A stretch of 64,000 bases of DNA from Candidatus Hydrogenedentota bacterium (GTDB taxonomy: Bacteria > Hydrogenedentota > Hydrogenedentia > Hydrogenedentales > JAEUWI01): positions 1 through 64,000 of the forward strand of contig JAXMOL010000004.1 in assembly GCA_034669905.1 (NCBI GenBank). The letters are read 5' to 3'. The position numbers and the translations under genes are program-made. The notes beneath the pieces are model-generated. The model was not told the origin of the DNA and made no database searches. It saw only the letters and a list, made by a program, of their open reading frames with translations. Below, piece after piece: positions 16,375-20,050 of this stretch; the first letter of the stretch is position 1; every line of letters begins with the position of its first letter.

Positions 16375-18258
16375 ATGAGTTTGATACGGCTCGACCGCAT
16401 TCAGAAAAGTTTTGCAGGCCAGGAAGTGTTGACAGACGTCGACTTTCGGGTGGAAGAGGGGGAGCATATTGGCCTCATCGGTCGGAATGGGACGGGTAAA
16501 TCCACTATTTTCCGCTTGATTACGGGTGAGATGGATCCCGAACGGGGCACGGTGGACCGGATGAAACGGGTGCGGATTTCGTGCCTTTCCCAGCTCCATC
16601 GCGTGGAGGACAATAAGACCATCCACGATATCGTCATGGAGTCCTTCGCCGATATTCTCGAACTGGAGAAAGAACTCGCGGTACTCGAAGAACAGATGGC
16701 CTCTGGCGATCCGGAAATTCTCGATATCTACAGCGAAAAGCAAGAGATGTTCACCATTCGTGGGGGCTATGACTTCCGCGTTCGTGTGAAGCAGGTCCTG
16801 CAAGGGCTCGGCTTCTCCGAAAGTGAATTCGACCTGCCCTTCATGGTGCTCAGTGGGGGGCAACGGACCCGGCTCATGCTGGCGCTCGTGCTCCTTCAGG
16901 ATGCCGATCTGCTCCTCTTGGATGAGCCGGAGAATCACCTGGACCTGGAAGCCCGAGAATGGCTGGAGTCCTACCTCAAAGACTGTACGAAGGCCGTCGT
17001 CGTCATTTCCCACGATCGGCAGACCCTGAACCACGTGGCCAACCGCATCGTGGAATTGGAGCGGGGGCAACTGCGCAGCTATCCGGGCAACTATGATGCC
17101 TATCTGGAGCGCAAGGCCCTGCTGCGCGAACAAAATCAGGCCGACTACGACCGTCAACAGGAGTTCATTCGAAAAGAGCAGGCCTGGATAGATCGCTTCC
17201 GCTATAAAAACACCAAGGCGAAAGCCGTCCAGAGCCGGGTGAAGCGCCTGGAGAAAATGGAGCTGGTGGAACCGCCCCTCGCCGAAGCCAGTACTGTCCG
17301 GCTCAAGACGGGCGACGTGGCCCGCTCGGGAGAACTGGTGTTGGAAGCCCGTGAGTTGAGCATGGGATACGATGATCTGACCCTGTACGACTCCGTCTCC
17401 TTTAAAGTGAGTCGCGGTGAGCGGGTGGGGATTGTGGGACCCAACGGGACCGGGAAGACGACCCTCCTTCGCCAGTTGGCGGAACAGCTGGAAGGACGGT
17501 CGGGCGAAGTGTCCCTCGGTCACAAAGTCCAGCGGGGATTCTATGAACAAAACCACGAATCGCTGAACCCCTCCAACGATATTCTTACCGAGGTGCTCTC
17601 GGCCCGTCCGGAGTGGATTCCGGAACAGATTCGCACCTATCTGGGACGCTTTCTCTTTACGGGGGACGATGTCTTTAAGAGTATCGCGAGTTTGAGCGGG
17701 GGGGAAGTCAGTCGCGTGGCCATGGCCAAACTGCTACTCGGTGAGTTCAACCTCTTGCTGCTCGACGAACCGACCAACCACCTCGATCTTGTTTCGCGAG
17801 AAGCCCTCGAGAACCTCCTGGTAGGATACGAAGGCGCCATCATCCTCGTGAGCCACGACCGGACATTGATCGACAAACTGGTCGAAAAGCTCGTGGTGAT
17901 TGAAAATGGGAAAGCAACGGTGCACCTGGGCAATTATACCGACTATCGTTGGGGCCAGGTCGGTAAGCCGGAAGAGCCCACCGAAAAGACGACGGATGAC
18001 GTGCTCAAGATCCGCCGGGAAACAACGCGAAAGAAAAAGAAGAGTACCGATCGCGAGAAGAAAAAACAGAAGGACCAGTTGGCCAAACTGGAGCAGGATA
18101 TTGAGTCGATGGAGACCCTGATCAACGAGCTCGAGACCCAATTTACCCAGGTGGCTCCCGATGACTATCAGACCCTGGAGAAACTCAAAGGGGAGTATGA
18201 CGCCTTGAAGGCGGATCTTTCCGAGATGTACCAATCCTGGGAGTCCCTTGCGGGCTAG
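16375..18258 (+). CDS. ABC-F family ATPase
   Basis: Two NBDs (GRNGTGKS/LSGGQ/LLLLDEP and GPNGTGKT/LSGGE/LDEPTNHLD), a GNY linker, a C-terminal coiled coil and no TM domains. Confidence 0.93.
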   Translation: MSLIRLDRIQKSFAGQEVLTDVDFRVEEGEHIGLIGRNGTGKSTIFRLITGEMDPERGTVDRMKRVRISCLSQLHRVEDNKTIHDIVMESFADILELEKELAVLEEQMASGDPEILDIYSEKQEMFTIRGGYDFRVRVKQVLQGLGFSESEFDLPFMVLSGGQRTRLMLALVLLQDADLLLLDEPENHLDLEAREWLESYLKDCTKAVVVISHDRQTLNHVANRIVELERGQLRSYPGNYDAYLERKALLREQNQADYDRQQEFIRKEQAWIDRFRYKNTKAKAVQSRVKRLEKMELVEPPLAEASTVRLKTGDVARSGELVLEARELSMGYDDLTLYDSVSFKVSRGERVGIVGPNGTGKTTLLRQLAEQLEGRSGEVSLGHKVQRGFYEQNHESLNPSNDILTEVLSARPEWIPEQIRTYLGRFLFTGDDVFKSIASLSGGEVSRVAMAKLLLGEFNLLLLDEPTNHLDLVSREALENLLVGYEGAIILVSHDRTLIDKLVEKLVVIENGKATVHLGNYTDYRWGQVGKPEEPTEKTTDDVLKIRRETTRKKKKSTDREKKKQKDQLAKLEQDIESMETLINELETQFTQVAPDDYQTLEKLKGEYDALKADLSEMYQSWESLAG

Positions 18259-18455
18259 GAAACTTCCGTCCCCCCGGGAGGCATTCTGAGAAAAGTGCGG
18301 TGTGGGGGCAGGGTACGGATTTGGCGTGGACTTCGCGGGGCCCCGATTCGGGTGACTTGTCTAAGCCCTTGTCAGATAAGAATCAATCCCATGGCGTAAT
18401 AGATGACGGACTGGGTGGTAGAATAGGCAGAAAGCCGCGCTACATGGAAAAACAA

Positions 18456-18498
18456 TTGACAATAAAAGGTTTACATGGTATTACAATGTCTGTAAAAT
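18456..18498 (+). promoter_or_regulatory. AT-rich candidate promoter and operator of the micro-protein unit
   Basis: TTGACA(18456)-N17-TATTAC and TTTACA(18470)-N17-TAAAAT. Also a TTTACA-N15-TGTAAA inverted repeat. Confidence 0.55.
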
Positions 18499-18686
18499 AA
18501 TGCCAGATGATGGTCCCATCAACGAACGTGGTTACCCCATGGCACCACGCGCTGTTACGTTGGGCGAATCAGAAGCCACAACTCTAACTACAAAAGTGTT
18601 GGATGGGGAACGCACGCGGATCGTGGGTGAGCCCGATGGAATCACCCGATTCGGTCCGACCGCAGAAAAACAGGAGAACGTCTCGC

Positions 18687-18812
18687 ATGAAACACCACCG
18701 GTTGGTGAGCAAAATGCCGCAACAATCTCAGAGTAACTTTCAGTCGAAGGTTGATTTTATCGTCAGTCTGACAGAGCGGATCGTCGAATTCACTTTCAGT
18801 AAAACGGCATAG
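18687..18812 (+). CDS. Micro-protein A, 41 aa (MKHHRLVSKMPQQSQSNFQSKVDFIVSLTERIVEFTFSKTA)
   Basis: AGGAG RBS at 18672-18676 before ATG 18687. Clear paralogy to the next ORF. Confidence 0.7.
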   Translation: MKHHRLVSKMPQQSQSNFQSKVDFIVSLTERIVEFTFSKTA

Positions 18813-18834
18813 GTCCTGGAAAGGCGTCATAATC

Positions 18835-19047
18835 ATGAAATCACACCTTCGTTTTGTTACCAAGTCTCCCTCCTGTGCGCAGAGCAACTTTCAGATTAAG
18901 TTGCAGGGCGTACTTGATATTGTAGACACCCTGCTGCTCGCGCAGCGCCAGTCCATTTGGAAGGCATTCTTCCCTTCTGAAGGTGCGACCGGTGAGAGCG
19001 GCGGTACCGATACCGGTGGTGACCTCGGCCTCGGTGGCGATCAATAA
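18835..19047 (+). CDS. Micro-protein B, 70 aa, paralog of micro-protein A with a Gly/acidic tail
   Basis: MKSHLRFVTKSPSCAQSNFQIKL... with a GAAAGG RBS-like site, followed by a terminator. Confidence 0.7.
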   Translation: MKSHLRFVTKSPSCAQSNFQIKLQGVLDIVDTLLLAQRQSIWKAFFPSEGATGESGGTDTGGDLGLGGDQ

Positions 19048-19081
19048 GCCCTTCGCCCAAGCGATTCCAATAGAACTTATG

Positions 19082-19123
19082 ACACCCAAGACCCCGCGCA
19101 ATGCGGTGGGCTTGGGTGTTTTT
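19082..19123 (+). terminator. Intrinsic terminator
   Basis: ACACCCAAG-ACCCCGC-GCAAT-GCGGTGGG-CTTGGGTGT-TTTT. Confidence 0.8.
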
Positions 19124-19213
19124 CGTTGGAGGGAGACAACGGGGCATTTCGCCGAAAAAAATCCCCTCGGGAGCGAGGGGAAATGTAGAGGACGTTGACG
19201 TTGTAGTGGGGGA

Positions 19214-20050
19214 CTAGATGCGGCTTTGCGCCAGCTTCGTGATGGCGATGCGCAACATGTCGCAGTCCGCAAAGCGATCCTTCGGGTTCTTAGAGAGGGT
19301 CCGCATGATAATGTCGCCGAGTGCCTGGGGGCACCGGGGATTCACGATCGTAGGGTGCTTCGGCTCAACGGAAAGATGACACTGATAGAGCCGTTGAAGG
19401 CTGTCTACCTGGAAAGGTACTTGTTCCGTAAACATCAAGTAGAGCGTGACGCCCAGGGAGTATTGGTCGCTCTGGGGAGAGGGGCTGTCGTTGCGAATGA
19501 TTTCTGGCGGCACGTACATGGGGGTAATCTGTTCACCGGCACCCCGATCGATAAGCTCGATGAGCAGGCTACTGCCGTACAGTGAGAAGTCGGCCAGTTT
19601 CACCTGTCCCGTACGGGTGAAGAGGATATTCGCCGGCTTAATATCGTGGTGAATGATTTTCTGATCATGGAGATATTGGAGGCCCGAGCATATCTGCCCC
19701 ACAATATTGATCCGCTCGTTCAGGTTCCACGGGCGGTTCTGGAGGTACCACTTCAGGTCGGGACCGTCAATGTACTCCATGATCATGCAGCGGCCGTCTT
19801 CACCGTCTATAAAATCATATATCTGGACGACGAAGGGATTGCTGTATTTCTTAAAGCGTTTGACGGATTTTACCAAATCCCGCAGGTGGAGTTTGTTGCG
19901 AAAGAAATTCTCTCGAAACAACTTGATTGCAACAACCTCACCCTTCTTGGTGTCGATGCCTCGATAGACACGGCCTGTGCCGCCCTGACCCAGGATGCGG
20001 TCCAACTTGTAATGATAGAGTGATGCCCGATCGGGGGTAAATTGATCCAC
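19214..20050 (-). CDS. Cytoplasmic Hanks-type Ser/Thr protein kinase with atypical motifs
   Basis: GQGGTGRVY, VAIK, HHDIKPAN, DFS, YVPPE and SDQYSLG motifs. Confidence 0.88.
   Translation of the reverse strand: MDQFTPDRASLYHYKLDRILGQGGTGRVYRGIDTKKGEVVAIKLFRENFFRNKLHLRDLVKSVKRFKKYSNPFVVQIYDFIDGEDGRCMIMEYIDGPDLKWYLQNRPWNLNERINIVGQICSGLQYLHDQKIIHHDIKPANILFTRTGQVKLADFSLYGSSLLIELIDRGAGEQITPMYVPPEIIRNDSPSPQSDQYSLGVTLYLMFTEQVPFQVDSLQRLYQCHLSVEPKHPTIVNPRCPQALGDIIMRTLSKNPKDRFADCDMLRIAITKLAQSRI

Follow-up and report, generated by a model that had tools for sequence, protein, structure and literature searches.

A conserved pair of small leader-bearing proteins in Hydrogenedentota: likely satellite precursors of a phylum-wide, SCIFF-derived, cysteine-free peptide system

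Locus Organization

The window (the whole 64,000-nucleotide stretch of DNA that was analysed) carries two small open reading frames, ORF A (41 aa) and ORF B (70 aa), between an upstream ABC-F gene and a convergent Ser/Thr kinase gene. The following features were assigned to the unit and its two neighbours:

16375..18258, + strand: ABC-F ATPase, upstream neighbour (context, outside the unit)
18456..18498, + strand: sigma-70-type promoter block, with TTGACA-17-TGnTATTAC, an overlapping TTTACA-17-TAAAAT and the palindrome TTACA-N5-TGTAA
18499..18686, + strand: 5' untranslated leader, variable among relatives, with an AGGAG ribosome-binding site at 18672-18676
18687..18812, + strand: ORF A, 41 aa; leader residues 1-15, then a short helical core with an F-x-F-x-K-T ending
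18687..18731, + strand: leader of A (MKH...PxxSQ), His3 and Pro11 invariant in 34/34 orthologues
18819-18824, + strand: ribosome-binding site of ORF B, GAAAGG
18835..19047, + strand: ORF B, 70 aa; leader 1-16, predicted helix 19-42, R-Q-x-x-W-K end, variable Gly/Thr/acidic tail
19081..19124, + strand: terminator-like hairpin and T run (fold z -3.4 for 19040-19200)
19214..20050, - strand: Ser/Thr protein kinase, convergent neighbour (context, outside the unit), adjacent in 27/40 loci and kept where the pair is lost

A complete unit of promoter-like region, ~190-nt leader, two ORFs and terminator had been described in a sequence-only reading of this DNA, and its coordinates and AGGAG site were reproduced. 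ORF A is indeed hidden in a longer call, a 69-aa ORF in the same frame that starts at 18603. In the promoter, TTGACA at 18456 is followed, after a 17-nt spacer, by TG-n-TATTAC at 18479 (18456-18484). The TTTACA/TAAAAT pair is the single site returned by a promoter scan, but shuffled sequences average 0.9 sites, so the scan alone is at chance level. The promoter block is near-invariant in 7/7 aligned genus sequences, and TTGACA was read by eye within 300 nt upstream in 26/35 loci. This 43-bp block, palindrome included, is almost unchanged in the genus, unlike the leader behind it; it may hold the site of a regulator. At the other end of the unit, the terminator hairpin is absent from the pattern-scan list, though the region folds well (z as above).

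The 5' leader varies in length and sequence among relatives. Its 190 nt fold no better than shuffles (z -1.6), and an Rfam search gave no match, with nothing under E 1.8. A structured RNA in the leader was rejected on these grounds.

Two observations concern the surroundings. The kinase is short and consists of the kinase domain only; it stands behind gatB and a gene that we take to be rsfS-like throughout the order, even in genomes without the pair. The order ABC-F, pckA, (pair), kinase appears to be ancestral (loci L100-L103 and L106), pckA being our presumed label for the gene between ABC-F and the kinase in relatives. In the genus of the window, this site lacks pckA.

Anatomy of the Two Proteins

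ORF A and ORF B are paralogues, with 11/31 identical positions, a pairwise E of 4e-7 and a profile-profile probability of 98.6. A 15-nt DNA repeat at 18729 and 18880 with a synonymous difference, noted earlier, is present (AGT vs AGC, both Ser), and the window holds only these two copies. The encoded QSNFQ occurs at only these two places in the six-frame translation of the 7.44-Mb genome. QSNFQxK had been put forward as the motif of a family. It is exact in only 2/34 A and 4/32 B orthologues (6/66 in total), QSNFQ recurs in 1/150 database relatives, and the motif is a local coincidence. The family signature is the leader, M-K-H-x-x-x-[IVL]-[ST]-[RK]-x-P-x-x-[AS]-[QT]. Its His is found in 34/34 A and 32/32 B orthologues and its Pro in 34/34 and 31/32, respectively. 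At the Pro-x-x-Ala/Gln junction, Ala or Ser is present in 30/34 A orthologues and Ala in 31/32 B orthologues.

A orthologues carry inserts between the Gln and the helix that reach 27 residues and in many cases consist of Gly/Thr runs. The His-Pro distance is constant and inserts never fall between these two residues. Because the inserts sit behind the Gln and the His-Pro spacing is fixed, the leader and the helix can be regarded as separate modules. The separable basic leader of ~15 residues proposed before is thereby supported. A cut before QSNF had been suggested as well; since the Gln travels with the leader, cuts before and after it are indistinguishable.

The predicted structure of B (pLDDT 67.5) consists of a disordered leader, a single helix of 24 residues (19-42) and a disordered tail. 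A helix behind the leader, as anticipated, is thus supported; its amphipathic character is not, as the hydrophobic moment does not stand out from shuffles (p 0.14 for the window's A, 0.40 for B). The helices are mildly hydrophobic, with a best 19-residue hydropathy of 0.59 (A) and 0.97 (B). Cysteine behind residue 16 is found in 1/34 A and 0/32 B orthologues. The C-termini vary among orthologues; in the window, A ends with Ala and B with Gln. A Lys at the end of the helix occupies the aligned column in 22/34 A and 26/32 B orthologues and, by a looser test, is present in 42/42 of the main-operon peptides described below.

Conservation, Selection and Expression

ORF B alone as a query matched 31/41 genomes searched. 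In profile searches of the 135 phylum genomes at E<=0.01, B was found in 101 and A in 114; these weak matches include cross-hits between the paralogues and may include main-operon peptides, which inflates co-occurrence. At E<1e-5, the B profile is still found in 85/135. At the 40 loci examined, A-type ORFs neighbour B-type ORFs, and ribosome-binding sites are present. In L001-L020, the search pattern missed four B ORFs, which had themselves been the matches by which these loci were selected. Compared with the window, pN/pS is 0-0.38 for A and 0.05-0.34 for B (8 genus loci each), values to be read with synonymous sites near saturation. Selection on the protein, as the synonymous repeat difference had been taken to indicate, is purifying within the genus.

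In RNA libraries of three studies, single contigs run through the leader and A and across most of B. They come from a close relative, with differences at 31-41 of 500-580 letters; two start near the predicted start, at 18490 and 18496, and one at 18381. Such contigs give neither strand nor level and may derive from contaminating DNA, so they are supportive only. The runs had been selected by this stretch, so a lack of contigs on the neighbours carries no weight.

A search of 1.84 billion representatives yielded 155 clusters, and small proteins account for 147 of the 150 listed. The remaining three of these A relatives, long repeat proteins matched internally, were not considered further. Pfam, NCBIfam, PHROGs and PDB sequence searches with A, B and the alignments gave chance-level matches only, in line with the earlier statement that no named family is recognizable. 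The best ESM Atlas score, 0.79, belongs to an unnamed protein. In the mainly open-access literature covered on peptides, small proteins and radical SAM enzymes of Hydrogenedentes/Hydrogenedentota, and on lipopeptide systems with CPBP proteases and GNATs, no description was found. ORFs A and B are a real, conserved gene pair.

A Family of Leaders and an Unlinked Operon

Leader searches revealed about ten further small ORFs with the same leader in the genome, so dispersed paralogues, which had been named as possible support for a family, do exist. Five of them form an array on contig C9, and single ones are found on C30, C21, C10, C5 and C56. The C9 array is followed by genes for two GNATs, for a CPBP protease, for the ATPase and the permease of an ABC transporter, and for a SPASM-GNAT protein of 613 aa, hereafter the scaffold. 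This main operon is unlinked to the A/B pair. The earlier remark that no processing enzyme adjoins the pair is true for the window; the likely processing genes sit on this other contig. The gene order is the same in most of the loci of 20 relatives, with leader peptides recognized by pattern in 16/20. The GNATs are of the RimL/RimJ type, and their best structural matches are RimL/SpeG-type. In the CPBP protease, the EExxxR, FxxxH and HxxxN motifs are kept in the consensus of 20 orthologues; we take these to be its catalytic motifs. The palindrome of the pair's promoter occurs once in this genome, and no regulon common to the pair and the C9 operon was found through TTACA-N5-TGTAA.

The kinship of the leaders was assessed with a profile built from main-operon peptides only (42 kept; 10 of 52 candidates dropped as noise). 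It ranks B 21st and A about 103rd among 94,241 candidate ORFs, and A/B orthologues in other genera reach the top 3-10. A profile from relatives only places A first of 168,097 starts. The strict leader pattern is found in 31/34 A, 24/32 B and 24/42 main peptides and in 5/94,241 background ORFs. The ORF A profile also matches a peptide of the main-operon type, P0136. Similarity between the cores of the pair and those of the main peptides is only slightly above that of shuffles. B carries long Gly/Thr tails, as do the main peptides.

Several members of the leader family were observed outside the array. The 38-aa ORF on C30 (L022:4720-4836, - strand) has a top-scoring leader and no hydrophobic helix; it immediately precedes two M42 aminopeptidase genes and is kept in 4/5 genus genomes. 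Single leader ORFs with hydrophobic cores are located at C56:15270 (-), C21:100676 (+), C10 about 101700 (-) and C5:10081 (+), the one on C56 being conserved in 5/5 genus genomes. In some relatives (L018, L073, L078, L080 and L085), a third leader-bearing ORF is present upstream of the pair. The second GNAT is duplicated in the main operon of some relatives (L060 and L061).

A CteB-Like Scaffold

The scaffold is a CteB-like fusion of an RRE, a dead radical SAM-SPASM protein and a GNAT. Positions 4-419 are homologous to CteB (5WGG, E 6e-40), which is also the top Foldseek match, and the modelled N-terminus, with three strands and three helices, is RRE-type. Among its orthologues, the SPASM cysteines are conserved in 22/22 and the radical motif CxxxCxxC in 0/22. 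This RRE-SPASM partner is thus present in the genome on C9, not beside the pair. A search for plasmid-borne relatives of the scaffold gave distant SPASM proteins only.

CteB is the maturase of SCIFF peptides, and in the part of PMC6231123 considered here the leader of its precursor CteA adds as a strand to the RRE sheet. In the rows viewed of the PMC10288494 supplement, most SCIFF precursors start with MKH[IV]KT[ILV][NS]; the precursor table holds 1571 occurrences of MKH and 2002 of the class name. The pages considered of PMC8172795, a further paper on CteA, add nothing about the leader His. Here, the leader segment H-x3-[ILVM]-[NST] is present in 34/34 A, 32/32 B and 40/42 main peptides. By eye, the first eight leader positions match SCIFF precursor leaders in the same register, and the likeness stops at position 9. 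Leader profile searches of the PDB did not retrieve the CteA chain at E<=10, and the six-cysteine SCIFF core has no above-cut-off match in the genome.

Joint Absence of the Pair and the Operon

The scaffold was found in 123/135 phylum genomes. Ten of the 12 genomes without it also have neither A nor B; for the remaining two, completeness is 60% and 88%. Nine of these ten belong to one family (four genera), and the tenth is an outlying genome. In all four of the nine that were inspected, the assemblies cover the ABC-F/pckA/kinase region and show a clean absence of the pair: the pckA-kinase gap measures 9-41 bp in three, and another gene fills it in the fourth. The second GNAT has no close orthologue in these four genomes. 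Genome G027 gave no leader-family match even at E<=1. In a quick GatB tree of 25 rows, eight of the genomes without scaffold and pair fall in an unresolved group of that family. The joint losses lie in one family and possibly represent a single loss event.

Conversely, eight genomes have the scaffold and no A/B match. Of five looked at more closely, G094 has a diverged pair, and in G126 and G131 the neighbouring kinase is also missing from the assemblies. G040 has the scaffold and an assembled kinase site with no pair; in G041, the leader peptides of the operon are diverged, and both kinase and pair are missing. In G041, which belongs to another family, three diverged MKH/MxxH leader peptides (L105:7072-7872, - strand) lack the Pro-x-x-Ala-Gln end. 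Because G040 and G041 have the operon and no pair, the operon can exist without it. The pair seems to need the operon, which does not always need the pair.

Proposed Role and Alternatives

The pair is likely a satellite locus, as yet undescribed, that encodes precursors for a SCIFF-derived peptide system free of cysteine and spread across the phylum. The reading that we favour, with some confidence, is that A and B are satellite precursors that share the leader of the C9 peptides and are likely processed in trans by the C9 proteins. The gene content of the operon and the joint loss suggest that A and B would undergo leader-dependent modification and leader removal. The RRE of the scaffold, which resembles CteB, would first bind the His-x3-[IVL]-[ST] segment in the form of a beta strand. 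One of the three GNAT domains would then acylate the core, at the new N-terminus or at the Lys near the end of the helix. Since this Lys is found in only 22/34 A and 26/32 B orthologues, the new N-terminus or an optional modification is favoured; the nearest solved GNATs include the RimL/RimJ N-terminal acetyltransferases. The CPBP protease would cut at Pro-x-x-Ala/Gln, and the ABC-2 exporter would carry the helical cores to their destination, membrane or envelope, for a housekeeping role there. Such a role is preferred to a library of toxins or signals because the cores are conserved phylum-wide, not hypervariable, and the promoter is of the consensus type.

More speculatively, the SCIFF leader and the dead radical-SAM protein might be the phylum's address-and-export route for a dozen helical proteins at several loci. 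Within this route, A and B would be the best-conserved clients encoded off site; once cut and acylated, they might co-assemble into an envelope layer or filament. We advance this extension only tentatively, as a doubtful possibility.

It is rather unlikely that A and B bind the scaffold by their leader and stay unmatured, as stoichiometric partners, chaperones or decoys that tune the main-operon machinery. A common leader and joint loss fit such a role equally well, a third of A orthologues can do without the Lys at the end of the helix, and the C30 ORF shows that a helix-less leader peptide exists. However, the Pro-x-x-Ala/Gln junction is conserved as in the main peptides, as expected of a cut site, and B has long tails like theirs; the pair also has a strong promoter of its own.

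That A and B are membrane-associated substrates or regulators of the convergent kinase, their leader likeness being mere ancestry, is improbable. The kinase adjoins the pair in 27/40 loci, the leader Ser/Thr is invariant, and G041 is without both kinase and pair. However, the kinase is intact in 4/4 empty-site genomes and in G040, the pair occurs with no kinase beside it in 13/40 loci (within the fetched DNA), and the same Ser/Thr is found in all main-operon leaders.

The leader had been loosely likened both to class III and to RiPP leaders. The RiPP-like logic held; the class III (prepilin) comparison did not. A type IV pilin or class III signal has a Gly-Phe...Glu5 junction followed by about 20 hydrophobic residues. 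A and B share with pilins a short basic N-terminus, an Ala before the junction and, in B, a single 24-residue helix, but the Gly-Phe...Glu5 junction is absent, the leader has no hydrophobic stretch, and the best 19-residue hydropathies (0.59 and 0.97) are low. It is very improbable that the pair encodes pilin-like subunits with a class III/Sec signal, handled by general peptidases independently of the C9 operon: general peptidases leave the joint loss unexplained, and Pfam, NCBIfam, PHROGs and PDB gave no match. A non-coding RNA or attenuator leader with incidental ORFs, which a 190-nt untranslated leader and the RNA-library contigs might suggest, is already largely refuted and hardly credible, given a pN/pS of 0-0.38 in the genus, frames and ribosome-binding sites kept across families where the leader is not, no Rfam match and a convergent next gene.

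Comparison with Known Systems

Among the closest known systems is the SCIFF/ranthipeptide class (CteA precursor, CteB maturase; 5WGG, 5WHY; TIGR03973/TIGR03974). The leader likewise starts with M-K-H-x-x-x-[ILV]-[NST], and the partner is likewise a full-length CteB homologue with an RRE-type N-terminus and SPASM cysteines. SCIFF peptides have a six-Cys core and an active CxxxCxxC maturase, whereas the A/B core is near Cys-free and the scaffold has the motif in 0/22 orthologues. Unlike SCIFF, the present system also has a GNAT fusion, two more GNATs, a CPBP protease, an exporter and many precursors at several loci.

Precursor genes that are scattered, some alone, and share a common leader and one maturase are described in the part considered of PMC10783134 for the prochlorosins (ProcA/ProcM), and scattered precursor genes with a common leader are found here as well. 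Prochlorosins have a Nif11 leader with double Gly, a LanM, lanthionines and hypervariable Cys/Ser/Thr cores. Here, in contrast, the leader has 15 residues and no Nif11 match in Pfam or NCBIfam, the operon has no LanM, and the cores are conserved across the phylum. Daptides, in the available text of 10.1101/2023.03.08.531785, comprise several short hydrophobic helical precursors with RRE recognition, an intramembrane peptidase and ABC transporters; in that text, they have an RRE-fused site-2 protease, an invariant C-terminal Thr and four Dmp-forming enzymes. Unlike these, the C9 operon has no Dmp-forming or RRE-site-2 genes, and A and B end with Ala and Gln. Selidamides, in the portion considered of PMC8784127, are ribosomal peptides whose Lys or ornithine is acylated by GNAT maturases. 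They have NHLP or Nif11 leaders and lanthionine rings, and the GNATs here resemble RimL/RimJ N-acetyltransferases. A conserved leader separable from the core, as in RiPPs in general, is found in A and B. By analogy, the system works like a RiPP pathway, yet it lacks defining features of SCIFF peptides, prochlorosins and daptides, and selidamides are set apart by leaders and rings as described.

Significance

Known leader-guided peptide systems are patchy and yield diverse secondary metabolites, whereas this one is near-universal in its phylum (scaffold in 123/135 genomes). This distribution, the purifying selection on the substrates and the service to genes outside the operon point to a core cell function. 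Judging from the pair's sequences, the C9-type system likely also acts on products of genes located away from its operon. It would illustrate how a maturase of the radical-SAM type, together with its leader, can find a new use without radical chemistry. The leader offers a 15-residue tag amenable to tests with purified proteins or in E. coli. If the envelope-layer extension is true, a housekeeping structural polymer would be made by RiPP-type machinery.
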